Shown here: positions 2,153-31,104 of the stretch, one piece after another
Layout: the number at the start of each line of letters is the position of its first letter
Position numbering within the stretch: position 1 is the stretch's first letter
Assembly (NCBI GenBank): GCA_965215885.1
Contig: CBDCEW010000063.1
Span: 1 to 32,966 of the forward strand
DNA: 32,966 nt
From: Candidatus Moanibacter sp.
GTDB taxonomy: Bacteria > Verrucomicrobiota > Verrucomicrobiia > Opitutales > UBA2987
Direction: 5' to 3'
Notes under the pieces: model-generated
Seen by the model: only the letters and a program-made list of their open reading frames with translations
What the model was told of the DNA's origin: nothing
The model's database searches: none
Translations under genes and position numbers: made by a program

Positions 2153-2363
2153 TACACCGATCGCCGTTACAGATCCGGTGATTTCTGAGGTTCGTCGGCA
2201 CAAGCGTGCCATAGCGGAGGAATTTGGATTCGATGTCATAGCTTTGGCTCGTTCGCTCCAACAGCGTCAGGTGGGAGATCCACGCTTCGTGACGCTCACC
2301 GAAAACGAAGGCGAACAAGCGGGTGCTGACCAACAGACTGCCCGCCCCGTGTCGAAAGCGTGA
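2136..2363 (+). CDS. Small partner protein of the PIN toxin (putative antitoxin); C-terminus runs into attC
   Basis: Overlaps the toxin 3' end; DPVISEVRRHK motif typical of small proteins following this PIN subfamily. Confidence 0.6.
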   Translation: MMKTIDTPIAVTDPVISEVRRHKRAIAEEFGFDVIALARSLQQRQVGDPRFVTLTENEGEQAGADQQTARPVSKA

Positions 2364-2435
2364 CGGTAATTTCAACCTCAACCTTGCAGACGAGGCGCGC
2401 CGCCGGCAGCCTGTGGCAGACCCCTGACGTTCTGT
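2310..2435 (+). other. attC site 1 (integron cassette recombination site)
   Basis: GGCGAAC(2310)...GTTCTGT(2429) with imperfect internal palindrome; translates as GEQAGADQQTARPVSK, the pattern seen at verrucomicrobial cassette ends. Confidence 0.75.
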
Positions 2436-2988
2436 CGTGAAACACAAAGGACGTGCATTCTTGCCTGACCCGATTTCCCCACAGATAGAGCTGCGCGGGA
2501 GGCGCCGTTGTCGATCATTGTTGCATGATCCCCTTACTTGCAACTAAATGGGGTTCAAAATGGCTTTCACACCAAGCAAAGACTACAAGCGCCGGGAGCG
2601 TGAGCGGAAGAAGACCGAGAAGCGCATGGCTCGCAAGGCCGCGAAAGCCGAAAAGAAGGCTGCCGAGCGGGACGCATCCCGTCGACGAGCACATTGCTCT
2701 GGAAATTGATCGGCACCGAATGGGGCTGCTGTCGAAGGAGGGGCTGGGACGGTAAATCTTCGCTCTGAGCGCAAGTATCTCGTAAACCCGAAACAAACTT
2801 GGCGAGTATGAGTAGAGTCCACGAAGATCGCTTAAGATCTGCCATACGACATATTCCGAAACAGACAGAACAATAGGATGCAGTCCGACATGCCACCGCC
2901 GGAATGTTTTCAATAGGTTTTAGAAGTTGGGGAGTCGTTTGAGCAGCGAAGCGGCGTTGTCGCGGTGCCATGCGGCTGATCCTGGACG
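2430..2988 (+). mobile_element. Integron gene cassette A, copy 1
   Basis: Begins G/TTCTGT (2429); its attC begins with the exact complement ACAGAAC (2865); near-identical copy at 8547-9105. Confidence 0.85.
2560..2709 (+). CDS. 49-aa highly basic peptide MAFTPSKDYKRRERERKKTEKRMARKAAKAEKKAAERDASRRRAHCSGN
   Basis: Read manually (below ORF-track cutoff); most plausible sense ORF in cassette A; open in both copies. Confidence 0.5.
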   Translation: MAFTPSKDYKRRERERKKTEKRMARKAAKAEKKAAERDASRRRAHCSGN

Positions 2989-2994
2989 TTATCC
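2865..2994 (+). other. attC site 2
   Basis: ACAGAACAATAGGATGCAG...GCGGCTGATCCTGGACGTTATCC; AAC/GTT cores and AGGAT/ATCCT, CAG/CTG pairing. Confidence 0.85.
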
Positions 2995-3018
2995 GCCGAA
3001 ATTTACTCTCGCTTCAGG

Positions 3019-3270
3019 TTGACTATCGCCACCTCATTCTCAAAACATCTCGCAGATTTAGAGGCATGGCTACGGCGTCGCAGGGACGCCCCGCCTTGGA
3101 CTAATGTGGTCGTGGTGCGCGACACAGACATTATGCACGGCCCTGGCGCAATAGTATCGGCGGACGCATTGTCTTCGCCAACGGAATTTTCACCGACTTT
3201 CGCCCAGCTTATCGGGGAAGGCTACGCTTGGATTAATCTGATTGGAAACGGCTTGTTGTATGTTTTATAA
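3019..3270 (+). CDS. Hypothetical cassette protein, probably 3'-truncated
   Basis: ORF starts 30 bp after attC2 GTT; ends in an AT-richer stretch beginning GTTGTATG at 3255. Confidence 0.45.
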   Translation: MTIATSFSKHLADLEAWLRRRRDAPPWTNVVVVRDTDIMHGPGAIVSADALSSPTEFSPTFAQLIGEGYAWINLIGNGLLYVL

Positions 3271-3551
3271 AGAACTCACGAATTATGGAGCATCAAAAAA
3301 GAAAAGAAGCCACTATAGCCCCAAGCATTTACCACTTCGATACGGGACCATTCAACTGGTACATCATTGAGGACGAAGGAAGACTAACCCTGGTAGATGC
3401 CGGTTTTCCGGGAAACTACAGCGTTTTACCAAAGGCATAGCCTCACTTGGTTTTGATATCAAAGATTTGGAGGCAATCATTCTGACCCACGCCCATGCTG
3501 ATCACATTGGTTTTGCCGAAAAGCTGAGAACGCAAACCAAAGTCCCAGTTT

Positions 3552-5926: not shown

Positions 5927-6506
5927 AGTTTATATCCATAAAGAAGATGCGGCAATGGCTGGCACTGCATTGCAATTGCCCTGGTACGGATTATTGTCCA
6001 ATGCCTGGCGACCTTATATTGCTACAATGCTGGGCACGGCGTTGGTTAATGGGGTGTTTAGCCTACCCAAAATTAGAAAAGTAAAAACCTTTGTGGATGG
6101 TGAAACTCTTGATGTACCCGGAAAACCTCTCGTAATTCACACGCCGGGGCATACCGCAGGCGAGGTAGTTTTTTATCTGCCCAAGCGCAATGTGTTGTTT
6201 AGCGGAGATACTTTGGTTACCCGAAATCTGATGACCGGAAAACATGGCGACCCACAAGTGACTCATCCCCTGCTGAACAAGGATTTTACACAAGCCCATC
6301 AGTCGCTTGGCTTACTCAACGAAATTGGAAAAGTAACTATGCTATCAGGGCACGGCAAGCCTTGGGTTGGCGAAATAAAAGAAGCTATTGAACTGGCATC
6401 ATCAAGTGATCCTTTTTTGCCGAAGGTGTAGCGTGTCGCCTTATGGGGTTTGAGCTATAAATCAGCCGTTTCGTGGCTTAGCGTATAATCCTGTCCCATT
6501 ACTAGT

Positions 6507-8351
6507 CCTAAAATAAGCGCGTTTAAAGGTTGAACAGGAAACTTCGTTATGCCTAACGTTATTTGCCATGCTGGCGGTAGTTTTGCCGCCGCCACCCTTG
6601 GGCTGGTTTCATGTTTTGCTTTTTTTGAGTCATATCCGTTCTGTTTTAACGTTAGTTCTGTCCCCTTTTTGGGATACGCCGACAGTCCTTCCGTTGTGGC
6701 TGTGCGTTCGCGGTTACTTGATCTGCTACCCAGGCGACATAGATCGGAATCGCTCCCAGGTGCTGATAAAATCTCCCATCCACTCGTTCCAGCTTAAAAG
6801 CCGATAAACAATTCGGCGCCCGCTTCGGATGATTTGCGCGGGGAGCAAGATGATGGCGTGAAGGAAGCGCCGAAACTCCATCTTCACGATCTCCAACCCC
6901 CGCTGGCGGTTGGGCATGAGTAATCCATACCACGCCTTCAGGTTCCAGGCCAATGCTGTCATTACCATATAGGCCCAATTGCTCAAAAGATCATCCACGG
7001 GCATACGCATCGCATTAACCCCGTTTTTGAGTTGCTCAATAACGTTCTCCTGATCGCAGCGTTGATTCGCAAAGGCGACCACCTGCTCCTTAGTCAGGTC
7101 CCTACGATTTGTGATATAAAAAAAGTAGCGGATCTCATCAAAGAGCACTACTTCGCCCTTTTGCACACTGATGTTCTTACGCACCACCACCATCCGATAG
7201 GTCTTTTTGCACTTGTTGGGCCGATAGTCCAACTCGGCCACACTTTCTGCCTCCAGCACCTTGTTTTCAAAACCCTTCTGGTGCACGATCCCTTCCTTCA
7301 CTCGCGGCGCTTTAGCTCTCGATTCGGTCGCTATTTCATGCTTGGGCAACCGCTCCAGTTCGCTCCAGGCCGTCTCTCTGAACTCCTCGGCCAGTCCCAC
7401 CACTTTGGGATGCGCATCCATTCCGAAGATAAATCCCGTTCCTTCTTCATCCCACCGATCGAAGTTTTCTGTCAACGAAAAGTCCGTATCCCCTCGCAAG
7501 CAGATTTTCCCCGCATGCGCACGCACAAGTTCCACCGCCCGATCAATCCACTTTACGCATCCCTCATGGCTAGTCTCATTGCCCGGTCGATTCACCATGT
7601 AGAGCACTTCCCTGGTATTTGCCAAACTCACGATCAGCGGTGCATAGCCCCAGATCCCCTTATAGCTTATTCCCATACCCCCTTTGCACTTCCCTCTCGT
7701 CTGCGCTATCGTCCCGTCCACATCGATGAACGCCTCCTCCATGAATCCTTTTGCCTGCTTGTTCCACACCCCTTGCCGTATCCGGTTGATCCCTTCCATC
7801 AATTTTTCGATCGCGCCTTCATCAAAGCGTCGGGTGAAGTCTCCACTGGTCGTCGGATCCGGTATCCTCTGCGCTCCTAAGGCATTCAGAAAAACCTCGT
7901 CCTTGCGGCGCAATTCGATGTCTTCGAGCCGGATCCCTCCCAATAATGCGTTGTCGGCTATGTTGAGCACATGATCACTCTCATGATACGGCAGGTGGCG
8001 CTTGAGCAACTGCACGCTCTGGTCGAGCTCTTCCACCAACCCCAGTCTCTTCACCATCAGGTGAATCGCTCCTATCCCTCCACAACTCACCCCTTTGCCT
8101 CGTTCGGCCGTCTCGTAGTGGATGTTGCTCGCTTTGAACATCGGTTTGGCCTGTTCAGGCCAGCCCCGATTTCTAAGCCGATGCTTTATTCTTCTCTTGC
8201 TATTGTGGAGGTTCTTGCGGTATCTTCTTTTCACTCGAAACGTCCTTTTTTTCTGGGTGGTTTTTTTGGTCGATTAACAGTTTTCCCAGTATCTAAGCGC
8301 GTTTCGAGCTTTTTATTGCGTTAGGTATATTCCAATCACACTTGTTCGAGG
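6507..8351 (-). mobile_element. IS1380-family element
   Basis: Imperfect TIRs CCTAAAATAAGCGCG / CCTCGAACAAGTGTG; flanked on both sides by ACTAGT (6501-6506, 8352-8357). Confidence 0.85.
6726..8234 (-). CDS. IS1380-family transposase
   Basis: IPDPTTSGDFTRRF, IDVDGT, LRGDTDF, RCDQENVIEQLK, NWAYMV motifs. Confidence 0.9.
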   Translation of the reverse strand: MKRRYRKNLHNSKRRIKHRLRNRGWPEQAKPMFKASNIHYETAERGKGVSCGGIGAIHLMVKRLGLVEELDQSVQLLKRHLPYHESDHVLNIADNALLGGIRLEDIELRRKDEVFLNALGAQRIPDPTTSGDFTRRFDEGAIEKLMEGINRIRQGVWNKQAKGFMEEAFIDVDGTIAQTRGKCKGGMGISYKGIWGYAPLIVSLANTREVLYMVNRPGNETSHEGCVKWIDRAVELVRAHAGKICLRGDTDFSLTENFDRWDEEGTGFIFGMDAHPKVVGLAEEFRETAWSELERLPKHEIATESRAKAPRVKEGIVHQKGFENKVLEAESVAELDYRPNKCKKTYRMVVVRKNISVQKGEVVLFDEIRYFFYITNRRDLTKEQVVAFANQRCDQENVIEQLKNGVNAMRMPVDDLLSNWAYMVMTALAWNLKAWYGLLMPNRQRGLEIVKMEFRRFLHAIILLPAQIIRSGRRIVYRLLSWNEWMGDFISTWERFRSMSPG

Positions 8352-8457
8352 ACTAGTCGAACCCCAACGAGCGGCAGAAACAATGAATCGGATAGATCAA
8401 TCTGACATCTATCGGTTTGAATTTGAACGTACAACGGACTTTAACTCCAACGCTGGC

Positions 8458-8552
8458 GGATAACAAAGAATTGCAGCGGAGCCGTGTTTGCCGTGCCGGT
8501 TCGCTTCGCTCATCAACGACCAATCACGGCCCGCCGAATTCAGACGTTCTGT
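8458..8552 (+). other. attC site 3
   Basis: GGATAACAAAGAATTGCAGCGGAGCCGTG...CACGGCCCGCCGAATTCAGACGTTCTGT; GGCGGATAAC (8455-8464) is the exact complement of GTTATCCGCC (2988-2997). Confidence 0.85.
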
Positions 8553-9105
8553 CGTGAAACACAAAGGACGTGCATTCTTGCCTGACCCGATTTCCCCACA
8601 GATAGAGCTGCGTGGGAGGCGCCGTTGTCGATCATTGTTGCATGATCCCCTTATTTGCAACTAAATGGGGTTCAAAATGGCTTTCACACCAAGCAAAGAC
8701 TACAAGCGCCGGGAGCGTGAGCGGAAGAAGACCGAGAAGCGCATGGCTCGCGAGGCCGCGAAAGCCGAAAAGAAGGCTGCCGAGCGGGACGCATCCCGTC
8801 GACGAGCACATTGCTCTGGAAATTGATCGGCACCGAATGGGGCTGCTGTCGAAGGAGGGGCTGGGACGGTAAATCTTCGCTCTGAGCGCAAGTATCTCGT
8901 AAACCCGAAACAAACTTGGCGAGTATGAGTAGAGTCCACGAAGATCGCTTAAGATCTGCCATACGACATATTCCGAAACAGACAGAACAATAGGATGCAG
9001 TCCGACATGCCACCGCCGGAATGTTTTCAATAGGTTTTAGAAGTTGGGGAGTCGTTTGAGCAGCGAAGTGGCGTTGTCGCGGTGGCATGCGGCTGATCCT
9101 GGAAG
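8547..9105 (+). mobile_element. Integron gene cassette A, copy 2 (basic peptide ORF 8677-8826)
   Basis: Direct repeat of 2430-2988 at offset 6117 with about 6 substitutions seen; repeat limits coincide with the GTT crossover points. Confidence 0.85.
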
Positions 9106-9111
9106 TTCTGC
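8982..9111 (+). other. attC site 4 (copy of attC2)
   Basis: ACAGAAC...GCGGCTGATCCTGGAAGTTCTGC. Confidence 0.85.
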
Positions 9112-9133
9112 CTGACAAGATCAAAGGCACATC

Positions 9134-9517
9134 ATGGGAATAATGGCAGATTCGATGGTGGCATACGCGCAGCTGTTGCTCGACGAGACTGATGGATCGA
9201 TGGACCAGATGAACAATGCGTTTGCGATTGCCCAGATGTGCTGGAACTTGGCGTTGTTGCCGGAGGAGGATCGAGAAGAGAGCCTCGCCGAGATGCGACC
9301 GGGACTCCAGATGGATGACGCCGAGTTCGCAGAATTCCGACAGTTGGTCATCGTGCCAATGATTCGGCGGCACCATGAAATGTTTCCCAGGATGCCGCGG
9401 CTAGAATCGCAGGCCGCACCGCCGCTCCCGCGCGAGAAGAAGTTTCCGGGGACGGGACGCAACGCCCCGTGTCCGTGCAATAGCGGAAAGAAGTACAAAC
9501 GGTGTTGTGGGCGATGA
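9134..9517 (+). CDS. SEC-C metal-binding motif protein (cassette gene, own attC missing)
   Basis: C-terminal GRNAPCPCNSGKKYKRCCG; starts 29 bp after attC4 GTT. Confidence 0.85.
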   Translation: MGIMADSMVAYAQLLLDETDGSMDQMNNAFAIAQMCWNLALLPEEDREESLAEMRPGLQMDDAEFAEFRQLVIVPMIRRHHEMFPRMPRLESQAAPPLPREKKFPGTGRNAPCPCNSGKKYKRCCGR

Positions 9518-9841
9518 CCACCCCCCGAGAATATAAAGATTCCCGAAATGGTGCGGGCGGAATTACTCTACGGTGCGGCCAAGAGCCGGCGGGTCGAGGA
9601 AAACCAGAAGATTGTAAAAGCATTTCTGGCCCCTTATGAACTCCTGCCTTTTGCGGGCGAGGCGGTTGAACATTTCGCCGAGATCCGTGCCGACCTCGAT
9701 CAGAAAGGGGAAGTCATTGGGCCTTACGCTCTGATCATTTCCGCGACAGTTCGCGCCTACGGTGCCACGTTGGTGACCAACAATCCGCGGGAGTTTTCAA
9801 GGGTGAAGGGTCTTCGCGTGGAAGACTGGTCGGTTGATTGA
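9518..9841 (+). pseudogene. VapC PIN toxin fragment lacking the N-terminal LLDT strand
   Basis: In-frame PENIKIPEMVRAELLYGA...IGPYALII...LVTNNPREFSRVKGLRVEDW; upstream bounded by the SEC-C stop codon. Confidence 0.75.
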
Positions 9842-9853
9842 GTTGGTCTTCGA

Positions 9854-10014
9854 GGGGCGCCATCTCACTGGGTTATTGGAGCGAACCGCGCGGAACCGTT
9901 GACGTTGACCTCACACTCTTTCTCCCTCCCGAGAAACCGTCACAGTGCGTTTGGTGTCTGCGAGATATTGGCTGTGACCTCGATTCGGCTACGGCGCTCG
10001 AATCACTTAGGAAA
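9854..10014 (+). pseudogene. Diverged internal fragment of the downstream nucleotidyltransferase gene (matches 10402-10562)
   Basis: Direct repeat at offset 548; GAISLGYWSEPRGTVDVDLTLF identical, later differences mostly at third codon positions. Confidence 0.8.
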
Positions 10015-10084
10015 GGGCGCGCGGGAAGCAGGAAAAGTAGAACCAGCGTTGACAAGGCGCGAAGCGCCGGCAATTAGTACCGGT

Positions 10085-10345
10085 ATGTCAACACAAGGAG
10101 AAAAATTGCGATTTCCAGGGCCAGCTGTTGTCGAGGCTGAACGTGATTTGTCCTATCTGCAATCGCTGAGCGTCGGTCAGCGCGGAGAGTTGCTAATTGC
10201 CGCCTGTCGGGCAGCCGCAGCAATCGAGCAGGGGCGGCGGCAAAGCGGGTTGTCGCCGTCGTTTCCCGCCCCTTGGCCGCATTCGACTCAGCAGTTCCAA
10301 AGAAAATGGGCCGCCCATGTCCGAGCAACCGCTGAGCGCGACTGA
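10085..10345 (+). CDS. 86-aa hypothetical protein, putative antitoxin partner of the nucleotidyltransferase
   Basis: ATG at 10085 (MSTQGEKLRFP); overlaps start of the next gene; TTGACA at 10049 upstream. Confidence 0.55.
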   Translation: MSTQGEKLRFPGPAVVEAERDLSYLQSLSVGQRGELLIAACRAAAAIEQGRRQSGLSPSFPAPWPHSTQQFQRKWAAHVRATAERD

Positions 10346-10886
10346 CGCGGCGGAGCAGCTCGTCGCCGCCCTGGACTCGCTAGGCCAAGAGTACGCCCTG
10401 GGGGGCGCCATCTCACTGGGTTATTGGAGCGAACCGCGCGGAACCGTTGACGTTGACCTCACACTCTTTCTGCCTCCTGAGAAACCGTCGCAGTGCATCA
10501 GGTGCCTGCAAGATATTGGCTGTGACCTCGATTCGGCTGCGGCGCTGGAGTCACTACGGGAACACGGCTTTTGCCGGGCCACCTACCAGGGCGTTCGCGT
10601 CGATGTATTTTTGCCCATCACGCCGTTTTACGAAACGGCCCGTAAGAAACGGCAGATGGTGCGGTTGGGCAACCAGACCATTTCGATTTGGGACGCCGCG
10701 TGTTTGGCTGTCTTCAAGATGATGTTCTTCCGGCGAAAGGATGTAGCCGATGTGGAACAGATGCTCCGTACCCAATTGGCGATGCTCGACCACGCATGGG
10801 TGCGTCAACAGCTTGTGGAGATTTTGGGCCAGCGCGACCCGCGGGTTACACAATGGGATGAGCTGGTAGCGGAAATGGAACAGTGA
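10317..10886 (+). CDS. Pol-beta superfamily nucleotidyltransferase (AbiEii/MenT-like), 189 aa
   Basis: YALGGAISLGYWSEPRGTVDVD (GG...R.T.D.D), RVDVF, FKMMFFRRKDVADV. Confidence 0.75.
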   Translation: MSEQPLSATDAAEQLVAALDSLGQEYALGGAISLGYWSEPRGTVDVDLTLFLPPEKPSQCIRCLQDIGCDLDSAAALESLREHGFCRATYQGVRVDVFLPITPFYETARKKRQMVRLGNQTISIWDAACLAVFKMMFFRRKDVADVEQMLRTQLAMLDHAWVRQQLVEILGQRDPRVTQWDELVAEMEQ

Positions 10887-11121
10887 AAGTTGGGAGCGGA
10901 AGTGTTATGGGTCGAAGATACGCTTCGAAAGAGCTGCCAATCGCGCCCGGGGCCGGCAATCCTTAACGTAGCTGAAAAGCCAAGCTCGATTGTATCGAAA
11001 CTCTCACTGCGGCACAGCTACTACTCAATACCGACGCCTGTTCACAAGCTAACGGGGAGAGCGTGATAGGGATTGCGCCGGACGATTAATCGGTGCTTCC
11101 GTCGTTTGCCTCCTGGCCGCA

Positions 11122-11144
11122 AACCCGCATAATAGCGAGTTCTG
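11122..11144 (-). repeat. Orphan terminal inverted repeat of the 741-aa-transposase IS
   Basis: AACCCGCATAATAGCGAGTTCTG is 22/23 identical to 5904-5926. Confidence 0.8.
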
Positions 11145-11360
11145 AACCTATATCAACCTCGCCAAGTGGTGGAGGTGCAACGATACCCGATGAAAAATGG
11201 AGAAGGGTGATCCAAGAGGGGGGTAAAGTGCCAGTAGTAGCAGCACAGCGGTGCCGGGTGAGCTATTTCACGGATGGAGCGGTGCTCGGCTCAGAGGAGT
11301 TTGTCCAGGGTATCTTTGAGGAGTTCAGGAGTCGGTTTGGAGCAAAGCGACGTTCTGTGA
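11145..11360 (+). pseudogene. C-terminal remnant of a RAYT/Y1-type (REP-associated) transposase
   Basis: RCRVSYFTDGAVLGSEEFVQGIFEEFRSRFGAKR resembles the C-terminal motif of PVC-group Y1 transposases; N-terminus missing at the orphan IR. Confidence 0.55.
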
Positions 11361-13873: not shown

Positions 13874-13906
13874 GAAGCGGTGCGATTAACCTGGCGCAGC
13901 GTAGCC

Positions 13907-13948
13907 GCCCTTCGACTTCGCTCAGGGCCCTGAGCCTGCCGAACGGGC
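13907..13948. repeat. REP-like hairpin
   Basis: GCCCTTCGACTTCGCTCAGGGCCCTGAGCCTGCCGAACGGGC with perfect central palindrome GCTCAGGGCCCTGAGC. Confidence 0.7.
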
Positions 13949-14383
13949 AACCAAATTGGAAGATCGACGCACGAAAGAGGGGCCACAGAGATCACCGAGA
14001 AGCACAGAGGACCACGGAGAGTTGAACAGAAGGAAACAGCGGAAGACGGAGAGAAAGAGGAAAGACTTCTCACGCAACGGTCTTCGACCCGCAAGCGGGA
14101 CTACGCCCTGTCAAGAAGCCGCAAAGACGCAAAGGGGGGGAGAGGAAGTGGCAACGGATGAAAGCACAGCAACGGATGGGGAGAGGACGTAGGTCGTACG
14201 GTCAATTTCCTGCTTTCCTTATTCAACTCTCAATCTGTGGGCTATTGAACTTTTCTAAACGAAACGTTCTTTTCTTAGGAACAGAACAATATTTCTTGAA
14301 CATCAACGGGTTATACTTGCGGTTAAGAAATTTCTTCTTAGGGAAATAGGCCTTTTCGAGTTTGTAGCACAGAGGAGGTATTT

Positions 14384-15490
14384 ATGGGAGAACAGTTTCG
14401 TGTCGTGCCCGAAGCGTTGCATAACGACCTCGTGGCAGCTGCCTTCCGGCATCGCGGCTATTCGGAAGAGGAATCAGATATCGCGGCGCGGTTTGCGGCA
14501 AGTGCGACCTGGCACGGGATCAGGACCCACAACGGCATCAAGGCGCTGGAACTCGACCGGTATCTCGGGAGCGGCTCAAAGGGCTGTGTTCCGGGCGCCG
14601 AGATTGAGAAGCTACCCTGCCGGTTTGAGGCTTGCGAAATTTGGAACGCAAACCGAAAGCTGGGACAGGCGGTTGCATCAATGGCAATGGAGAGGTGTAT
14701 CGAACTCGCCGATCAATATGGGGTCGGCATGGTCAACGTGGATAATGCCTTTCATTACCTCTGGGGTGGCGGACATGTCATGGAAGTGGCAAAGAGAGGG
14801 TATATCGGATACACAAACTGTCCGGCGTCCCTCGCAGAAGTGATTCCTTTTCAGGGCAGGAGCCCGACTTTAGGCACGAATCCGCATAGCTGGGGTTTCC
14901 CAACGACGGAAGCGATTGGGTTTCCCATCGTAATTGATTGGGCGACGTCTGTTGTCTCAATGGGGAGAATCGCGCAGTTTGCACGGGAAGGTCAGAGGTT
15001 GCCTCCAGATGCTGCCCTTGATGCAGAGGGCAGGGTTACGACGGATCCCAAAGAGGCTGTTCATGTTCTCCCTTTCGGGGGGCATAAGGGCTATAGCCTG
15101 TGTCTGCTGAATGAGATTGTCGCCGCCTTTATCGGCGGGTCGTTACCGACGATTCGAAATATCTGGGAGGACGACGGCGAAAAGCACACTTGTACTTTTC
15201 ATTTCCAGGTGATTCATCCGGAAGCGTTGAACGCCGGAGCGTTTGCCGCGGGAAGAGATCAGTCGGCAAACGTGCGTGCAGTGATAGAGGACATTCTCGG
15301 CCACGGGAACGAAAATTGCATGTTGCCGGGACAGCTTGAAGCCGAGGCCGCCCAGCGAAGTGAATTGAACGGCGGGTTGCTCTTCAGCGAGGTGGAGATC
15401 GAGACGTTTAACGCTGTCGCTGAGGAATGTGAACTGGCGGGATGGAAGTGGAGTGATTTTGAGGAGGAGAGAGACACGGAGTCACACTGA
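14384..15490 (+). CDS. Ldh_2 family (malate/L-lactate/ureidoglycolate-type) oxidoreductase
   Basis: GIRTHNG, LGTNPHSWGFP, IDWATS, LPFGGHKGYSL, LPGQLE; RBS GAGGAGG upstream. Confidence 0.85.
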   Translation: MGEQFRVVPEALHNDLVAAAFRHRGYSEEESDIAARFAASATWHGIRTHNGIKALELDRYLGSGSKGCVPGAEIEKLPCRFEACEIWNANRKLGQAVASMAMERCIELADQYGVGMVNVDNAFHYLWGGGHVMEVAKRGYIGYTNCPASLAEVIPFQGRSPTLGTNPHSWGFPTTEAIGFPIVIDWATSVVSMGRIAQFAREGQRLPPDAALDAEGRVTTDPKEAVHVLPFGGHKGYSLCLLNEIVAAFIGGSLPTIRNIWEDDGEKHTCTFHFQVIHPEALNAGAFAAGRDQSANVRAVIEDILGHGNENCMLPGQLEAEAAQRSELNGGLLFSEVEIETFNAVAEECELAGWKWSDFEEERDTESH

Positions 15491-15607
15491 GGGGGAACAC
15501 AGAGTTACACGGAGGAGGAACACTGACAAAAGAAGGCGCTAGCGCGGCGTAGCCGTAACCGAAGCATAGAGAGGGAGAAGCGGTGACGGGGAGAGGGGGA
15601 GACGCAA

Positions 15608-15800
15608 CCAAACTTTTGTCGTAAGCTTCGTCGTCAACTTAGTCGCCATTTTTTTGCTCTCTCGAGGAGGTTTACGATGAAGGATAGAGGGAGCTTTTCT
15701 CCCCGTCAGGGTTTCTTTGTCGCTAGTCCCGCTGAGCGGGATCGTGAGCTTTGTCGCGGAATTCGGTCGCTCTCTCGACGAAGCTTACGATGAAGTTTGG
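15608..15800. repeat. IR-bounded non-coding element with internal short repeats
   Basis: CCAAACTTTTGTCGTAAGCTTCGTCG (15608-15633) pairs with CGACGAAGCTTACGATGAAGTTTGG (15776-15800); 15-bp perfect core. Confidence 0.65.
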
Positions 15801-16166
15801 GAGGTAAGAATAAGGTTCATCCACAACTGAAGCTTCGATCGCAATTTTTTGAGCACCAGCATCTTCCGCGAAAAACTTGCTAAAAAAAAAAGAAGTTGCA
15901 CGATTGTAGTACGGAGGAGGAACCCTGACAGAAGAAGGCCACAGAGCACACTGAGCCGTCTGCGCTGCGTTGCGCCGTGCCAAGGGAAGCATGGAGAGCA
16001 CAGAGAGGGGATTTTTGATGGATTGATTTGTGAGTCGAGGCGCTGGATTTTGGTCTTACTTGAGGTTTGAACAGAAGGAAACGGAGGGAAACGTAGTTAA
16101 GTAAATGGGAGAGGCAGATCCTGAGGTAGCTAAACCCAGCGCACCCTGTATAAGGTAACGATAAAT

Positions 16167-17268: not shown

Positions 17269-17752
17269 GAGGAAGAGTGGGACACGGAGCTACACTGAGG
17301 GGGAACACAGAATTTCACGGAGGAGAGGGGGAGAACGAAGATGAGAGTGTTTCTTTCGGGTCTAGGATAAGTCAATGATGGCGCCCGCGTCGCGAATTGA
17401 GGAAGAGTGGGACACGGAGTTACACTGAGGGGGAACACAGAGTTTCACTGAGAAGAGGGGGAGAACGAAGATGAGAGTGTTTCTTTCGGGTCTAGAATAA
17501 GTCAATGATGGCGCCCGCGTCGCGAATTGAGGAAGAGTGGGACACGGAGCTACACTGAGGGGGAACACAGAGTTTCACTGAGAAGAGAGGGAGAACGAAG
17601 ATGAGAGTGTTTCTTTCGGGTATAGGATTAGTCAATGGTGGCGCCCGCGTCGCGAGTTGAGGAAGAGTGGGACACGGAGTCACACTGAGGGGGAACACAG
17701 AGTCACACGGATAAGAGAAAGGAGAATAAAGATGAAAATGTATCATTCGGAT
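17269..17752 (+). repeat. Tandem repeat, 130-bp period, about 3.7 copies
   Basis: GGAAGAGTGGGACACGGAG at 17271, 17401, 17531, 17661. Confidence 0.95.
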
Positions 17753-18109
17753 CTAACTGAGAAGATAATTGGAGCTGCGATAGAAGTGCACAATCTGATG
17801 GGGCCAGGTCTTTTGGAATCTGCTTATGAAAAGTGCCTGTGCAGAGAGTTGGAACTACTCGAATTGCCGTACGAAAGCCAATTAATATTGCCAGTTACTT
17901 ATAAAGGAGTCGAAATAGAATCAGGTTACCGCATTGATATTCTAGTCGATCAAAAGATCGTGTTAGAACTCAAAACAGTCGAAGAACTCATTGATGTGCA
18001 CGAAGCGCAACTCTTGACGTATCTCAAATTCTCAAGAGCGAAAGTGGGATTGTTGATTAACTTTCGTAGCAAGCTTCTGAAAGATGGGATCAGGCGTTTC
18101 GTTATGTGA
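17732..18109 (+). CDS. GxxExxY protein (PD-(D/E)XK nuclease fold), copy 1
   Basis: IIGAAIEVHNLMGPGLLESAYE, YRIDILVD, VLELKTV, QLLTYLK, GLLINF; GGAG RBS before ATG 17732. Confidence 0.92.
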   Translation: MKMYHSDLTEKIIGAAIEVHNLMGPGLLESAYEKCLCRELELLELPYESQLILPVTYKGVEIESGYRIDILVDQKIVLELKTVEELIDVHEAQLLTYLKFSRAKVGLLINFRSKLLKDGIRRFVM

Positions 18110-18147
18110 AGGGCTGAGATGGAGAAAAAAAGCCTTGAACTTTATTT

Positions 18148-18188
18148 CTCTGTGGTGCTCGGTGTGACCTCTGTGTAACTCCGTGACT
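18148..18188. repeat. Right inverted repeat of GxxExxY unit 1
   Basis: Reverse complement GTCACGGAGTTACACAGAGG matches upstream GACACGGAGTCACACTGAGG (17671-17690). Confidence 0.8.
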
Positions 18189-18203
18189 CAGAAATCTCTA
18201 ATT

Positions 18204-22367: not shown

Positions 22368-22402
22368 AAATCGTTAGATGATTAGGATTCTTTTCGATCT
22401 AA

Positions 22403-22675
22403 GTACTCGAATTCGTAAATACGGTGACGTATGCCGAGGCGATTTTGGATGCTGGGGGAGGCGGTCGAGTCGTGCCAGGCCTGGCGGTCTTGGGCGACTC
22501 GACCAACGCTGCCCAGCGCCAAAAGCGCCCGGTCCCAAAGGGATGGGGCGGCATTGGGGGTATTGCGGCGTTGCGCCGACGAGGAGAGCTCGCCAGGGCT
22601 GTCCGTCGCCGGCGCGCCTTGCACTACCCCCAATGGCGCTCCCACATACGTCACCGTATTTACGAATTCGAGTAC
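22403..22675. mobile_element. 273-bp MITE
   Basis: Perfect 31-bp TIRs GTACTCGAATTCGTAAATACGGTGACGTATG; flanking TAA duplication (22400-22402, 22676-22678). Confidence 0.88.
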
Positions 22676-22706
22676 TAAGGGAACCGCAGGAGTTTTGGAA
22701 ACGAAA

Positions 22707-24596: not shown

Positions 24597-25907
24597 ATGA
24601 GTGAATCCTTCCCAGAGATATCGCGTATCGAGCACGAAGGACCTGAATCGAAGAACCCTCTGGCGTTCAAGCACTACAATGCTGATGAGATGATCACGGG
24701 CAAATCGATGGCGGACCACTTGCGTTTTGCCTCGGCCTATTGGCATACCATGCGCAATCCACTGTCGGATCCTTTCGGAGTGGGGACGGCGCAGATGCCC
24801 TGGGAGGACGGCACGGATTCCGTGCAGAACGCGCAGAACAGAGTAAAGACTTTTTTCGAGTTTCTAGAAAAGTGTAATATCGGATTCTATTGTTTCCATG
24901 ATCGCGATGTTGCACCCGAGGGAGAGTCGCTGGGGGAGACGAACGCGAATCTCGATGCAGTGGTCGAAGTCCTGGAATCCGAGCAGGAGCGGTCGGGGAA
25001 AAAGCTACTTTGGGGAACCGCCAATCTCTTCACGAATCCGCGGTATGTCCATGGAGCGGCCACGAGTTGCAATGTCGAAGCATTCGCCTACGCCGCTGCG
25101 CAGGTAAAAAAGGCGATCGAGGTGACGCATCGTCTGGGCGGGGAAGGCTATGTTTTCTGGGGCGGCCGGGAGGGATATTCCAGTTTGCTGAATACGGATA
25201 TGAAACGCGAACTCGACCACCTCGGGCGCTTTCTACACATGGCGGTCGATTACAAAAAAGAGATCGGTTTCGAGGGACAGTTTTATATTGAGCCCAAGCC
25301 GAAAGAGCCGACCAAGCACCAATACGACTCGGATGCGGCCGCTTGTCTGAATTTCCTGCGTGAGTACGATCTGCTGGGAGACTTCAAACTCAATATTGAG
25401 ACCAACCACGCGACCCTGGCCGGGCATACGATGTGGCACGATCTTACGGTTGCGGCGGTTGCGGGAGCTTTGGGCTCGATTGATGCCAACACGGGCGATC
25501 TGCTTCTGGGGTGGGATACCGATCAGTTTCCGACGGATATCTATCTCGCGGCGCAAGTCATGCTGGTAGTGTTGGAGATGGGAGGATTCTCCACCGGAGG
25601 CTTGAATTTTGACGCCAAGAGGCGGCGCGAGTCATTTGAACCGATTGACCTTTTTCATGCCCACATCGGGGGAATGGATGCCTTCGCGCGCGGGTTGAAG
25701 ATCGCGGTAGCGATTCGTGAAGATGGACGTCTCACGGAGTTATTGCGGGAAAGATACGCTTCCTGGGACGAGGGTCTAGGGGCACGAGTGGAGGCGGGCG
25801 AGGCAGGGTTAACGGAACTCGAGACCTATACGATGGAGCACGGCGAACTGGAAAATGTATCCGGCAGACAGGAGATGCTAGAAAATATGATCAATGAATT
25901 CCTTTGA
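24597..25907 (+). CDS. xylA: Xylose isomerase
   Basis: [58 protein letters not shown]. Confidence 0.97.
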
Positions 25908-26398
25908 ACAGAAGGTAACGAAGAGAACAAAGAAGGCTTGTGCATCGACTCTACAGAAAGGCTGACCGGATTAGTAAGGAAGTAATCGGGGCGGCCATAG
26001 AAGTTCATAGGAATAAGGGTCCGGGTCTGATTGAATCCATCTACGAGTGGTGCCTCATCACAGAACTAACGATTCAAGGGCTTGGCACGAAGAGTCAGAA
26101 GCGAGTTTCTGTCACATATAAAGGCTTCAAGAGGGAAGAGCCGCTGAGATTTGATGTGCTGGTAGAAGATTGTCTTTTAGTTGAAGCAAAGGCGGTGGAG
26201 AAAATTCTGCCCATCCATAAGGCCAAGCTTCTCAGTTACATGAAGTTGCTGGACATTCCAATTGGTCTATTGATCAACTTTAACGAATTGCGTGTGGTCG
26301 ATGGAATAACAAGGCTGATATTGCCCCGAGCTAACAAGGAACATTGCTGAACTTGCTTAATTCTCCCTCTTCGTAACCTTCGTTACCTTCTGTTTAAA
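25903..26398 (+). mobile_element. IR-bounded GxxExxY unit 2 (putative small mobile element)
   Basis: TTTGAACAGAAGGTAACGAAG (25903-25923) versus CTTCGTTACCTTCTGTTTAAA (26378-26398): 20/21 inverted match; mobility is inferred. Confidence 0.65.
25940..26350 (+). CDS. GxxExxY protein (PD-(D/E)XK nuclease fold), copy 2
   Basis: VIGAAIEVHRNKGPGLIESIYE, LRFDVLVE, VEAKAV, LLSYMK, GLLINF. Confidence 0.92.
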   Translation: MHRLYRKADRISKEVIGAAIEVHRNKGPGLIESIYEWCLITELTIQGLGTKSQKRVSVTYKGFKREEPLRFDVLVEDCLLVEAKAVEKILPIHKAKLLSYMKLLDIPIGLLINFNELRVVDGITRLILPRANKEHC

Positions 26399-27937
26399 AT
26401 GGCTAACCTGATTGGGATTGATGTCGGGACTTCCTCGGCGAAGGCGGTGCTGATTGACCAGGAGGGTCGAGTGGTGGCGTCCCGGGCGCCTGAGTATGCG
26501 TTCAGGACACCTCGGCCTCTTTGGGCCGAGAGCGATCCGAGTGACTGGTGGGAAGCAACGGTGGCAGCTATTCAAGGTCTTCTCGGTGAGACGGGGCTCA
26601 GTGGAGGTGATGTTGCAGGGCTGGGATTGACAGGTCAGATGCACGGTCTCGTGATGCTCGACTCCGGCGGAAAAGTGTTGCGCCCATGCATCATGTGGAA
26701 CGACCAGAGGACCGAGTCGCAGTGCAGAGCGATCACGGATATCGTGGGAGCGGAGCGGGCAGTCGAGCTGACAGGCAACCCCATCCTTCCCGGTTTTACC
26801 GCCCCCAAGATTGTCTGGGTGCGCGAAAATGAACCCGAGATATATGCGAAGACAGCGAAAGTCCTTTTGCCTAAAGACTACGTTCGGTATCGCCTGTCCG
26901 GCGAATTCTTTACCGATGTTTCGGATGCATCCGGGATGTCTCTTCTGGATGTCGAGAAGCGCCAGTGGTCGCAGGAGATGCTTGATGCATGTGACGTTCC
27001 GCGGGAGTGGATGGGAGAGGTCACGGAGTCGCCCGTGGCATCGACAAAGCTGAGCGCGGAGGCGGCGCAGATCACGGGTCTGCTTGAAGGGACGCCGATA
27101 ATTGCGGGCGGGGGAGACCAGGCGGCACAGGCCGTGGGATGCGGCATTGTGAGGGAAGGTGTGGTGTCGGCTACCTTGGGAACCTCCGGCGTGGTCTTTG
27201 CACACAGCGACGAGTATCGGGTGGAGCCGGAGGGAAAACTGCATGCCTTTTGCCACGCGGTTCCGGGGAAATGGCATTTGATGGGGGTGATGTTGTCCGC
27301 TGCTGGTAGTTTCCAATGGTATCGTAATACTTTGGGTGGCGAGGAACTGGCTTTGGAAGAGGAAACGGGAATAGATGCCTACGATACGCTAACCGAAGGT
27401 GCTTCAGAGGTTCCGGAAGGTTCGGAGGGGCTCATCTTTCTGCCTTACCTGACCGGGGAGCGCACGCCCTATCCGGATCCCAATGCAAAAGGAGTATTCT
27501 TTGGGCTTTCTCTGCGGCATACCAAAGCGCACATGACCAGGTCGGTTTTGGAGGGAGTCACGTTTGGGCTGCGCGATTCTCTCGAGTTAATCCGTGGCCT
27601 TGGCACGAGAATCGATCATGTCGTTGCATCCGGCGGCGGAGCCAAGAGTCCTTTTTGGCGTCAGCTGCTTGCCGACATTTTTGGTTCAAGGATTGTCATC
27701 GTGAATTCGACGGAGGGGGCGGCCTACGGTGCGGCGATTCTGGCAGGTGTTGGAGCGGGTGTCTATGCAAGCGTCGAGAAAGCCTGTGATCAGCTCATTC
27801 GAGTCACCGAAGAGTCATCGACAAGCGAGCGAATGTCCGTCTACTCCGAATATTACGAGCGTTACAAGGCTCTCTATCCCGCCTTGAAGGACGAGTTCAA
27901 TGCGATTGCCGCTCTAGTCGAAAAGTACCAGGACTAG
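26399..27937 (+). CDS. xylB: Xylulokinase
   Basis: GIDVGTS, GQMHG, WNDQRT, GFTAPK, GGGDQAA, PYLTGERTP; follows xylA. Confidence 0.95.
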   Translation: MANLIGIDVGTSSAKAVLIDQEGRVVASRAPEYAFRTPRPLWAESDPSDWWEATVAAIQGLLGETGLSGGDVAGLGLTGQMHGLVMLDSGGKVLRPCIMWNDQRTESQCRAITDIVGAERAVELTGNPILPGFTAPKIVWVRENEPEIYAKTAKVLLPKDYVRYRLSGEFFTDVSDASGMSLLDVEKRQWSQEMLDACDVPREWMGEVTESPVASTKLSAEAAQITGLLEGTPIIAGGGDQAAQAVGCGIVREGVVSATLGTSGVVFAHSDEYRVEPEGKLHAFCHAVPGKWHLMGVMLSAAGSFQWYRNTLGGEELALEEETGIDAYDTLTEGASEVPEGSEGLIFLPYLTGERTPYPDPNAKGVFFGLSLRHTKAHMTRSVLEGVTFGLRDSLELIRGLGTRIDHVVASGGGAKSPFWRQLLADIFGSRIVIVNSTEGAAYGAAILAGVGAGVYASVEKACDQLIRVTEESSTSERMSVYSEYYERYKALYPALKDEFNAIAALVEKYQD

Positions 27938-28115
27938 CCCGGACATTTCACAAACCATCTGCTGCGACCACGGATGTCACTGCGCCTCAAGGCCTTCTCT
28001 TGTCCGGCGACCTCAGAGAGTTCCAACACACTGTCGCCCGCCGGACTGCGAAAAGACCTTGATCCGCAGCAACCTACGCCGTCTCGCTACGATGTGTGTG
28101 AAATGTCCGGGCTAG
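27934..28115. mobile_element. About 180-bp MITE/REP-like element in a CTAG site
   Basis: Perfect 19-bp IR CTAGCCCGGACATTTCACA (27934-27952) / TGTGAAATGTCCGGGCTAG (28097-28115). Confidence 0.8.
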
Positions 28116-28824: not shown

Positions 28825-30327
28825 TCAAGAGGCTGCGAGCGGTTCGCCTGTTCGGGTCGGCTTCCAATTCGCCGGAGCGAGTTCGGCGATCTCGGTGATG
28901 TTCATGTCCGGCAATCTTTTGAGGACGTCAGTGAGGTAAGCGGATGGTTCAATTGCGTGCCGCCGGCAACTCTCAATGATCGAGTAGATTACGGCGCTTC
29001 TCCAACCGGCCTTGGGGTGGCCGATGAACATCCAGTTTTTCTTTCCCAAGGCGGTCGGCCGGATAGCATTCTCAATGAGGTTATTGTCGATTTCAACCTT
29101 GCCATGCTCGAGGTAGCGCTTGAGTGATTCCCACTGGTTCAGAGCATACTCAACGGCTTCACCCATTTTGCTCCGCGGCAAGGCCCGCCGTTTGAGTATA
29201 GGCAAGGCTTTGCCCAAGCGTTCCACGATCATCCGACCATGGCTTTTCCGGTAGGCTTCGCGCAAGGCGGGACCGGCCCGCTGTTCGCGCAGATGGCGCT
29301 CGTCTCTGTAGAGATTGTGGATCTGCCGCACCACCCAGCCGGCCAGCTTCGGATTCTCATCCATCGCCTCCACAAATTTGCGTCGCAGGTGTGCCCAGCA
29401 CCCAAACAGGGTAATCCCGTTATGCTCCCGGGCGAAACTGCCATAGGCTGCGTAACCGTCGGGTTGGAGCAACCCTTCGTATCCGTTGAGGAACTGCTCG
29501 AGACATTTTACCCCACGGCCTGTGTGCCAGTCGTAGAGCACCTCGCCGCCGGGTCGCCCGTAGACCCACAGGTATCCTTTCCTGCAGCCCTCTTTCTTGC
29601 CTGCGTCCGGATCCAGGTAGCGGATGGGCGTTTCGTCCGCCTGGATGTAACCGCCCTCGAACAATTGTAAGCACATGTAGTTGTAGATGGGTTTTAGCCA
29701 TTGCGCTACCTGGTGGATCCAATCGAGCATGCTCTGGCGCGCCACCCTTACTCCGTAGCGTTCCCGGAAAATCTTCTCCTGCCGATACAACGGCAGGTGA
29801 TCGACGTATTTGCTCAGTAATATGTGCACCAAAAGCCCCACTCCAGGGATCCCTTTTTCAATCAGCCGCGATGGTAATGGCGCCAGCACGGGAGGTTCCT
29901 GGGGCTTTTCGCGAGATACATATTTGCGCCGTATATAGCGCCGCCTGATAAATCGGGCCGGGAGCAAATCTAACTCTTCAGTGACTTCCTCACCGATCAA
30001 CCGCCACTTTTGCGGTTCAACCTTCACCGCTTCGGGTTCGATTACGATCTCTTCGACTTCCAGGTGCTCGGGCAGACGCTGTCGCCTCGCCCCAGCTCCT
30101 TTGCGCGCCTTCGGCTCGGGTGGTGGCTCTGCCGTTTGCTCAGCGGGTTTGTTTTCCTCGGCCTGCTCCAGCCCGGCCAGGAGCAATTCCAGCTGTCCCG
30201 GATCGATCCGCTCGCTTTGGTTGCCTCCAAAGTAGCGCTTAATGAGCCAGCCGATCTTCTGTCGTAAAAGCCGATTCTCCTCTCGGAGTTGCTCCAGCTC
30301 TGTTTGCAAAACCTCGACTTCAGGCAT
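28825..30327 (-). CDS. tnpC: IS66 transposase TnpC
   Basis: [43 protein letters not shown]. Confidence 0.93.
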
Positions 30328-30394
30328 GAAAACAATACTAAACTAACGGTAATAAGAAAAGCAATACTTTTTCAAAAAAATCACTTTTTTTGAC

Positions 30395-30745
30395 CTAACG
30401 CTGATACCAGGGCCGCATCTTCCCCTCCCTCAGGTCGATCCCGTTCAAGAGCATGCTCAACGCTTCAGGGCGCAATGGAAGCTTCTGATCTTTCAAGTCC
30501 ACTCCCTGCGGCCAGCTGAACCGACCCTTCTCTAATCGCTTTGCGAAAACCCATAACCCCGTGCCGTCCCAATACAGAATCTTGACCCGGTCCCGGCTGC
30601 GATTGCAGAAGACAAAGACCGCTCCGCTCAACGGGTCTTCCTTGAGCTGATTGGCCGCCAGGGCGTAGAGACCATTAAAGCTCTTTCGCAGATCCGTTAC
30701 TCCCACGGCCAGGAAAACCTTCATCGTTCCCGGTAAGCTCAGCAT
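30395..30745 (-). CDS. tnpB: IS66 accessory protein TnpB
   Basis: DLRKSFNGL, FVFCNRSRDRVKILYWDGTG, KRLEKGRF; start at ATG 30745. Confidence 0.92.
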   Translation of the reverse strand: MLSLPGTMKVFLAVGVTDLRKSFNGLYALAANQLKEDPLSGAVFVFCNRSRDRVKILYWDGTGLWVFAKRLEKGRFSWPQGVDLKDQKLPLRPEALSMLLNGIDLREGKMRPWYQR

Positions 30746-31104
30746 CCCGATTCCCTCAACGCCTTCACCAGACTCGCCACTTGTTCCACCGCAACACCGC
30801 AGTCCACCTCCACCCGTATCGGGTCCCCTAAGACGATCTCGATCCGATCCTCCGTGACCGCGCTGCTCTGCACCGTAACTTCGGCAAACCGCGCCCCCGC
30901 CGATTTTACCCCGCTGCTTCTGTGCCCGGCCCGGTCCTTGCGCAGCCATCCCATAAAGGTCATATACTTGATACCGTGCCGCTGGGCAAACGCCCTCTGC
31001 GTCTGATTGCTGCGACGGTATGCGCTTATCAGTCGCCTGCGCTCCTGCCGACTTCGTCGAACGATTCGCTTCGACCGTGTCCGCCCTCTCGTTTTTTCTC
31101 CCAT
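30739..31104 (-). CDS. tnpA: IS66 accessory protein TnpA (HTH)
   Basis: YRRSNQTQRAFAQRHGIKYMTFMGW, FAEV; overlaps tnpB start. Confidence 0.8.
   Translation of the reverse strand: MGEKTRGRTRSKRIVRRSRQERRRLISAYRRSNQTQRAFAQRHGIKYMTFMGWLRKDRAGHRSSGVKSAGARFAEVTVQSSAVTEDRIEIVLGDPIRVEVDCGVAVEQVASLVKALRESGC

Follow-up and report, generated by a model that had tools for sequence, protein, structure and literature searches.

Between the xylA and xylB genes of Candidatus Moanibacter sp. (contig CBDCEW010000063.1; the 32,966-nucleotide stretch analysed here is termed the window) lies a small GxxExxY gene, enclosed by inverted repeats that reach from the stop codon of one neighbour to the start codon of the other. 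A preliminary description of this DNA saw in the arrangement a self-hiding element, whose repeats would pair in the mRNA and loop out the gene. Do these repeats (arms) serve the RNA in this way, or do they belong to an element that acts on DNA? We find that the xylA–xylB cassette (unit 2) belongs to a nuclease-plus-repeat family that is widespread and most likely acts on DNA.

The xylA–xylB cassette

The flanking genes, both on the forward strand, are xylA, encoding xylose isomerase (24597–25907; TIGR02630, 697.7 bits, cut-off 533), and xylB, encoding xylulokinase (26399–27937; TIGR01312, 578.3 bits, cut-off 380). The left arm (25903–25936, forward strand) consists of a terminal TTTGA followed by three tandem AAC-purine words with a 9–10 nt period, and scores 38 bits with a matrix built from 177 homologue arms. 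Its outer end contains the xylA TGA (25905–25907), which is positioned as in relatives, whose protein ends N-E-F-I/L. The GxxExxY gene (25940–26350, forward strand; 136 aa, GTG start) is followed by the right arm (26365–26398, reverse strand), an inverted copy that ends directly before the xylB ATG (26399). The 21-nt arm cores (25903–25923 and 26378–26398) are identical at 20 of 21 positions; over an extended 34 positions, 28 agree. The exact fit of the inverted repeats to the gap, noted in the preliminary description, was thus confirmed, as were its AACGAAG-type internal repeats, found as three AAC-purine-rich words spaced 9–10 nt in each arm.

The GC content of the unit 2 gene is 46% versus 54–57% in the flanking genes. 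No Rfam family matched between 13500 and 28300, and terminators and promoters showed no excess, with none at the arms. No identical whole-cassette copies were dispersed in the genome assembly (90% complete), where the next GxxExxY protein is only 45% identical to that of unit 2.

Occupied, empty and decayed junctions in relatives

Related xylA–kinase junctions were surveyed; 18 of 77 xylA ends were left out because no kinase gene lay downstream within the stretch examined, and in 23 of the 59 junctions retained, the kinase is only distantly related, an FGGY paralogue with ∼ 25% identity. The gap is at most 23 nt in 30/59, and such short gaps identify the cassette, by sequence comparison, as an insertion. 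Directly adjacent xylA and xylB, to which the preliminary description looked for an empty site, do therefore exist in relatives, though the nearest are in other genera; the one related strain compared is not a precise empty allele, since both arms remain and 305 bp, most of the GxxExxY gene, are gone. Nine related junctions hold arm pairs without a gene, and one other holds a 29%-identical GxxExxY cassette with a different arm word. Over evolutionary time cassettes thus come and go at such junctions, and they can decay through an internal deletion that spares the arms. The locus thus adds repeated independent occupation of one junction and, in the related strain, a decay intermediate.

The GxxExxY protein

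The unit 2 ORF scores 128.6 bits with TIGR04256 (cut-off 35) and 120.7 bits with PF13366 (PDDEXK_3, cut-off 22). The latter is its sole Pfam match; neither a GIY-YIG (cd10448) nor an HUH Y1 domain was detected. The GxxExxY motif residues G29, E32 and Y35 are invariant among homologues. The model (pLDDT 92) has a predicted PD-(D/E)XK fold and its top structure matches are Cas4 SSO0001 and other PD-(D/E)XK enzymes, each of them modest (Foldseek E 1.4e-3; Z 7.3, rmsd 3.4, 99 aligned); a sequence search of solved structures gave no match. The catalytic residues are nearly universal in homologues (E32 200/200, D72 199/200, E82 195/200, K84 200/200) and unit 2 retains all four. At position 96, where 187/200 homologues have Q, unit 2 has K, as do 10/200. 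Profile matches and predicted fold together place the protein in the GxxExxY/PDDEXK_3 family and among the putative PD-(D/E)XK nucleases. The median dN/dS is 0.07 across 29 pairs of family genes, which together with the intact catalytic residues indicates that the gene family is under purifying selection.

PF13366 is present in 63/121 genomes of the order, and the closest homologues of unit 2 are spread over several phyla. Phage sequences gave no match and plasmid records eight distant ones. The part of PMC3424549 available to us lists the function of TIGR04256/PF13366 as unknown and describes multiple transfers between lineages; it makes no mention of flanking repeats.

Each protein clade has its own arm word

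Flanking inverted repeats scoring at least 12 were found at 56/80 close-homologue loci versus 1/76 shifted controls, and the arm matrix gave 67 matches in this genome versus none in a shuffle; the arms therefore exceed chance. An ACAG-R-AG arm accompanies 62 of the 64 homologues with at least 60% identity and 2 of the 63 below that value. Arm word and protein co-vary with a Mantel rho of 0.66 (shuffle maximum 0.12), in tests on the loci with an inverted-repeat score of at least 12 (146 of 200) or at least 14 (128 of 200). Each GxxExxY clade is thus accompanied by an arm word of its own, built as three 9–10-nt words behind a TT-G/T-A end. This co-variation could be simple co-inheritance.

Direct arm copies across the gene differ by 4.3–4.4 mismatches versus 6.1–6.4 for hairpin partners, which match no better than shuffled pairs. 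Doublet–gene–doublet arrangements occur among the homologue loci, where short arm doublets are common; the arms of unit 2 are ∼ 450 nt apart. The outer arms of single-arm cassettes are alike (4.0 mismatches versus 7.4 shuffled, n = 10), a similarity that selection for pairing would also produce. There is no target-site duplication: the six outer bases of 45 elements match inverted (0.71) rather than direct (0.39), with no exact case, so the terminal hexamer was rejected as one, and direct repeats at element ends are not in excess. The same arm layout surrounds four-helix-bundle genes, which have no nuclease fold, in 15/20 loci; the cargo need not, therefore, be the mobiliser.

Arms across the genome and the order

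The unit 2 arm family has 63 distinct copies in this genome, mostly solo; an inverted partner lies within 1.5 kb of only 6/75 regex-defined arms, and most orphan arms differ in word spacing from unit 2's own. Two orphans lie in the window on the forward strand, one (14021–14051) within a stack of arms that point the same way and represent about four word families (13874–14190), the other (16066–16095) recognized by the matrix. Gene-less composite stacks of this kind are shared by different loci. A second GxxExxY cassette, unit 1 (17269–18190, forward strand), belongs to the CAC-R-GAG word family; its gene (17738–18109) encodes a protein 45% identical to that of unit 2, and it has four left-arm copies in a 130-bp tandem and one right arm (18168–18190). 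Its registration is inexact, ∼ 13 nt from stop and from ATG. Because gene calls were heuristic (hexamer model, longest-ORF rule), the registration distance of any individual locus, here or among the homologues, may be wrong.

With all families counted, by patterns picked after the data had been seen, the genome holds 415 distinct arms, 26 of them within called genes, which make up 68% of the genome. The C-word and L-word families have no identified cognate gene. Arms lie at most 300 nt from 7/9 GxxExxY loci, and from 1/27 Y1-transposase and 0/4 GIY-YIG loci in this genome; Y1 and GIY-YIG genes were accordingly rejected as arm partners. In a set of 120 genomes of the order, the strict arm pattern was present in 5 of the 8 that have a cognate-clade gene and in 6 of the 112 that lack one (Fisher P = 1e-4), or in 4/8 of the cognate-gene genomes when only arms away from the gene are counted (P = 1.5e-3); both tests treat related genomes as independent. 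The arms are thus spread between genes, whether or not a GxxExxY gene accompanies them.

These results support the family anticipated in the preliminary description, in which minimal cassettes combine a PD-(D/E)XK gene with inverted arms matched to its clade, lack a transposase and are accompanied by orphan arms and by empty junctions in relatives. Its supposed preference for operon junctions did not hold: arms occur at 53/661 convergent, 38/628 divergent and 145/2359 co-directional junctions, equally frequent within error (P = 0.2).

Does the mRNA stem matter?

Both the MFE and the centroid fold contain the 21-bp stem formed by the arms, its pairs having probabilities close to 1, and the sole mismatch in the core is a G-U on the sense strand. 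The entire 561-nt region folds no better than shuffles (z −1.11). As folded, the stem buries −20 to −1 of xylB; when a ribosome footprint is modelled over the xylA stop, −10 to −1 become free, with the AUG itself still predicted to be paired. Across 146 elements, arm mismatches are G-U in 107 and A-C in 127 cases, unlike a tRNA control (26 versus 7), so there is no G-U bias. The upstream stop falls inside the arm end at 7 of 65 scorable loci, and at most 25 nt away at 39/65, among the 80 homologue loci; at none of 40 scorable loci is a downstream ATG as near as that of xylB. The exact registration with stop and start is therefore special to the unit 2 copy. xylB does lack a purine-rich Shine–Dalgarno sequence, as had been reported, but this is no special feature, since such starts are normal here: an SD-like word precedes 177/634 operon-internal ATG genes of this genome, and is found at 4/41 related xylA–kinase junctions.

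Sequencing data were examined as assembled contigs for 4 of the 23 runs listed, with one run (X12) of unrecorded library type and one (X6) without coverage of the cassette. No joint skipping the cassette, as removal at the RNA level would leave, was found in the contigs of two metatranscriptome runs. RNA-run contigs cross the left arm (X5, 25808–26313) and the right arm (X18, 25932–26548) intact, although DNA carry-over is possible; we drew no evidence from differences in RNA-run depth, from the break in the X18 contig at 25930/25932 or from stretches without coverage. Taken together, the absence of G-U bias, the loose registration, the arms at convergent junctions and the missing joint leave self-hiding by an mRNA stem unsupported; this locus thereby contributes statistical evidence against an RNA-pairing role.

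Alternative explanations

Selection on the arms to pair in mRNA, bringing the xylA stop beside the xylB start for coupling, or for removal of the gene with re-joining, would account for the near-certain stem and its G-U, the exact registration of unit 2, the freeing of −10 to −1 by the footprint and the retention of both arms after gene loss in the related strain. We nevertheless consider it quite unlikely. Beside the points just given, the folded stem buries the xylB upstream region and leaves the AUG paired even with the footprint, SD-less starts are normal in this genome, and the arms are mostly unpaired. Very unlikely, in our judgement, is an element resembling intervening sequences (IVSs), in which RNase III would cut the terminal stem and free the cassette RNA, leaving xylA and xylB messages separate and unligated. 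RNase III is encoded in the genome, requires a stem of about 21 bp, and would leave no joint in contigs by cutting without ligation; four-helix-bundle genes, a family found in rRNA IVSs, share the arm layout. However, X5 and X18 contigs span the arms intact (with the same proviso on carry-over), G-U bias is lacking, and solo arms and arms in divergent junctions are left unexplained.

Two further explanations are set at the level of DNA. The arms might be a MITE- or REP-like repeat moved by another enzyme or by recombination, with the GxxExxY gene as captured cargo that has another job (repair, defence). The unrelated four-helix-bundle cargo, the gene-less composite stacks and the dispensability of the gene in the related strain fit this idea, which is nonetheless unlikely in view of the tight clade-to-word match across phyla, the genome-wide co-occurrence of arms with the cognate gene and the near absence of such arms from Y1 and GIY-YIG genes. 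Integron cassette boundaries are called to mind by the left end, where a stop codon lies next to AAC, and by the right end, which contains GTT and directly precedes an ATG, and the genome encodes an integron integrase. An origin of the unit as a stray integron cassette, with attC-type sites for arms, is barely credible, however, and was rejected. The core sites of attC have the consensus RYYYAAC/GTTRRRY, which the arm ends of unit 2 do not fit; the gene lies inside the palindrome, not before it; and the integrase is on another contig, with attC-like sites of its own that differ from these arms.

A probable nuclease-repeat element acting on DNA

The cassette is probably a nuclease-repeat element that works at the level of DNA. 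It is comparable to Ssn/SRM and REPIN–RAYT, with a minimal PD-(D/E)XK protein at its core. The GxxExxY protein would bind the word array and nick near the arm end; host repair or recombination would then copy arms, doublets or entire cassettes to other places between genes, and insertions into genes would be purged. The unit 2 copy would have landed in a very short xylA–xylB gap, which is why its ends touch stop and start. The mRNA stem would be incidental and tolerated by xylB, perhaps because it is melted by ribosomes that terminate at the xylA stop within the left arm.

In Ssn/SRM (SsnA-NTS; Chenal et al., 2025; PMC11893778), a small single-domain nuclease gene has its own flanking repeats and no transposase, the repeats are dispersed in genomes with a homologue, and specificity differs by clade. 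GxxExxY genes are likewise flanked by cognate repeats dispersed in genomes carrying the gene. The enzyme is GIY-YIG there and PD-(D/E)XK (PF13366), recognized from sequence, here; the Ssn/SRM repeats are self-contained 20–50-nt hairpins, whereas ours are tandem 9–10-nt words, often unpaired or enclosing the gene, though short doublets are common at homologue loci. In REPIN–RAYT and TIRtrons (PMC3116915, PMC3733652), roughly one enzyme gene serves each repeat family, non-autonomous repeats are numerous outside genes, and clusters are mosaic. Flanking repeats or terminal inverted repeats around a gene, and a mainly extragenic position, are shared, but GxxExxY cassettes have no HUH/Y1 transposase and no GTAG/CGTC tag, and in this genome solos, not doublets, predominate. 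ORF-bearing IVSs of 23S rRNA have complementary ends around a small ORF (PMC4990558). Like them, the cassette is a 400–500-nt insert with complementary ends and a small ORF, and genes of the IVS protein family that lie between protein genes are flanked by arms in the same way; unlike them, it lies between xylA and xylB, carries nuclease-like cargo and gives no sign of RNase III processing in contigs, which do not resolve RNA ends. With IS elements and MITEs it shares inverted ends with several putative protein-binding words and gene-less derivatives by internal deletion; it differs in having no DDE transposase, target-site duplication or identical dispersed copies. A literature search, mostly outside subscription journals and confined to main texts, found no published description of repeat-flanked GxxExxY genes.

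We tentatively propose, as a substantial possibility, that RAYT and Ssn have an unrelated third counterpart in the GxxExxY proteins, which would likewise be small sequence-specific nucleases; that each clade reads its own 9–10-nt word array and spreads such arrays through intergenic DNA across many phyla; and that, together with the four-helix-bundle cassettes, they make up a single large and hitherto undescribed class of elements built of tandem words and competing for the same junctions. If so, 130-aa enzymes would hold a natural collection of specificities. Were the clade-to-word match enzymatic, it would also provide site-specific nucleases of very small size, as was the case with the Ssn family, and explain hundreds of unannotated intergenic repeats per genome, such as the 415 arms found here. 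For PF13366, a very common family without a known function, the match names a candidate substrate for each protein, which makes that function directly testable.

Anatomy of the cassette and its protein

The genes xylA and xylB are separated by a gene for a TIGR04256/PF13366 (GxxExxY) protein (25940–26350) flanked by inverted arms at 25903–25923 and 26378–26398, which are identical at 20 of 21 positions (28 of 34 when lengthened). In each arm, three AAC-purine words with a spacing of 9–10 nt follow a TT-G/T-A end. With the xylA TGA at 25905–25907 and the xylB ATG at 26399, the preliminary description was correct that the unit fills the stop-to-start gap exactly. The GC content of the gene is 46%, that of the neighbouring genes 54–57%. 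Inverted repeats flank 56 of 80 close-homologue loci versus one of 76 controls. This segment (unit 2) is an inserted GxxExxY cassette of a widespread nuclease-plus-repeat class, which most likely acts on DNA.

The structure model of the protein (pLDDT 92) matches Cas4, lambda-exonuclease and Hjc-type PD-(D/E)XK folds with modest scores. E32, D72, E82 and K84, near-invariant across 200 sequences, are all kept. Position 96 is K, as in 10 of the 200 homologues, instead of the Q96 of the QxxxY motif. The family is under purifying selection (median dN/dS 0.07 for 29 pairs, selected as intact hits), and the unit 2 protein is probably nuclease-active. PMC3424549 gives the function of PF13366 as unknown. 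A fused double GxxExxY-domain gene elsewhere in the genome (contig C105, 17712–18461) has no tandem-word arms and is flanked by another repeated sequence.

Occupancy of the junction in relatives

An empty xylA–xylB site in relatives, which the preliminary description had proposed to look for, does exist: in six of eight same-family genomes xylA lies beside xylB, with spacers of 42–154 nt and no cassette. Across the order short gaps are common, with ≤ 23 nt at 30 of 59 xylA–kinase junctions and ≤ 5 nt at 16; among close relatives, no exactly empty allele was found. Only one other junction among the 59 (genome G009, locus L023) holds a GxxExxY gene, whose protein is 29% identical and whose arm word differs. 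Judged from the spacer sequences by eye, arm pairs with no gene between them, in about six word types, occupy nine of the 59 (L162, L160, L161, L145, L181, L172, L176, L158 and L180). A related strain (run X12, one 9651-nt contig, 95–97% identical) retains both unit 2 arms, the right one shorter by one word, and has a 305-bp deletion in the gene, bounded by 3-nt microhomologies. The cassette therefore predates the strain split, the gene is dispensable, and internal deletion is one route to gene-less arm pairs. Unit 2 is an insertion, and the xylA–kinase junction is reused by such elements.

Arm words follow the protein and are dispersed

Arm similarity tracks protein identity: across 128 elements Mantel rho is 0.66, and no shuffle exceeds 0.12. 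The unit 2 word accompanies 62 of 64 homologues of at least 60% identity, from hosts in several phyla, versus 2 of 63 below. The nine GxxExxY loci of the present genome have differing arm words; arms lie near seven of them, 1 of 27 Y1 loci and none of four GIY-YIG loci. In 120 other genomes, whose kin are not independent, the strict unit 2 pattern occurs in five of eight with a cognate-clade gene (≥ 57% identity) versus 6 of 112 without. Each arm word belongs to its GxxExxY protein clade.

The unit 2 arm occurs 67 times in the genome (63 distinct; shuffling gives 0), mostly without an inverted partner, and within 60 nt the nearest gene faces the outer end of such arms in 24 cases versus one. 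Pooling all word families gives 415 distinct arms, often stacked, with 26 inside called genes.

More than one family is present in 80 intergenic regions, and gene-less composites at different loci have sequence in common. Same-direction stacks of several families follow stop codons at 13874–14190 and 15472–16095. At five loci (L068, L047, L067, L046 and L048) the GxxExxY gene is flanked by two direct copies of one doublet, with similar spacers and outer flanks; this is the arrangement expected had a gene with its doublet inserted into a doublet already present, or duplicated it.

Possible pairing of the arms in RNA

The preliminary description had the arms pair in mRNA, looping out the nuclease gene, hiding the cassette and bringing the xylA stop beside the xylB start. 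The one observation in favour is that a stem is possible, its pairs being predicted in RNA folds at probabilities near 1, and we consider such looping quite unlikely. The proposed exact registration with stop and start is loose elsewhere: the upstream stop lies inside the arm end at 7 of 65 homologue loci (≤ 25 nt away at 39), and the downstream ATG 7–26 nt past the arm core at 19 of 40, never as near as the 5 nt of unit 2. Such distances may simply result from insertion into ordinary short gaps. In the three other stop-in-arm-end cases of this genome the reading frame enters the purine-rich leader of the repeat, so an arm can supply the stop codon. A Shine–Dalgarno sequence is present in 177 of 634 operon-internal genes and at 4 of 41 related xylA–kinase junctions.

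Arm mismatches are G-U in 107 cases versus A-C in 127 (56 versus 75 in outer arms of the unit 2 family; tRNA stems, for comparison, 26 versus 7). Arms that partner in a local hairpin resemble each other no more closely than shuffled pairs, whereas direct arm copies across the gene do; against a DNA-level reading, so do the outer arms of single-arm cassettes (n = 10). Arms are as frequent at convergent as at co-directional junctions, and both neighbours are co-stranded for 56 of 108 GxxExxY genes, versus 42% of all genes in this genome. Nor was the predicted processed RNA product detected: no joint skipping the cassette appears in metatranscriptome runs X5 and X18, examined as contigs, in which rare forms drop out and unligated cuts are invisible; these contigs traverse the left and right arms unchanged. 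The cassette has anatomy in common with rRNA IVSs; IVS-like processing of its RNA by RNase III is very unlikely. The predicted stem buries xylB –20 to –1; when a ribosome-sized block is modelled on the xylA stop, –10 to –1 become free, with the AUG still paired elsewhere. Terminating ribosomes may melt the stem and make this copy tolerable.

Probable mechanism and relation to known systems

We favour, as the probable explanation, a DNA-level mechanism. The GxxExxY protein would recognize its own word array and nick close to the end of the arm, and arms, doublets and whole cassettes would then be dispersed through repair or recombination, insertions inside genes being purged by selection. Local copies would decay, the gene itself surviving through horizontal transfer. 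What the sequences show directly is the match between arm word and protein clade, the dispersal of arms, the presence or absence of cassettes at junctions, their decay, and purifying selection on the gene; binding, cleavage and movement are inferred. No target-site duplication was found at these elements. That the gene is instead cargo within a repeat mobilized by something else is unlikely, even though four-helix-bundle genes have the same arm layout at 15 of 20 loci, and the xylA-junction word of L176 is the arm word of such a gene (L346) in the same genome. It is highly improbable that the arms are attC sites.

In their way of working the cassettes come closest to Ssn/SRM (PMC11893778) and also resemble REPIN-RAYT and TIRtrons. 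They are members of neither, because the enzyme is neither GIY-YIG (Ssn/SRM) nor HUH (REPIN-RAYT, TIRtrons). GxxExxY proteins could, tentatively, form a third class of word-specific mini-nucleases. The literature searched yielded no description of repeats flanking GxxExxY genes.

Neighbouring repeats

A 182-bp CTAG-bounded inverted-repeat element (27934–28115) overlaps the xylB stop. In the genome BLAST finds 148 matches to it of at least 150 nt, with both orientations included. The element is missing in the X12 strain, and a near-identical copy disrupts the GxxExxY gene of contig C96. Before unit 1, a second GxxExxY cassette (17269–18190) with another arm word family, each 130-bp tandem unit of 17269–17717 contains ∼ 21 nt resembling the 3′ end of a PfkB kinase gene, then a stop and a left arm. 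These segments differ from the upstream PfkB gene mostly at third codon positions and are possibly a relic of another allele. A different repeat type, with 65-nt inverted arms, lies between an oxidoreductase and a HATPase-domain gene (22399–22679). Contig C100 (112000–129216) carries an integron integrase that scores above the TIGR02249 cut-off; close to it are attC-like sites and genes resembling cassettes, the whole fragmented by insertion sequences. ORFs resembling transposases are dense at 1–11200 and 28825–31104, as are small PIN/antitoxin-like genes; both were named from their translations only.
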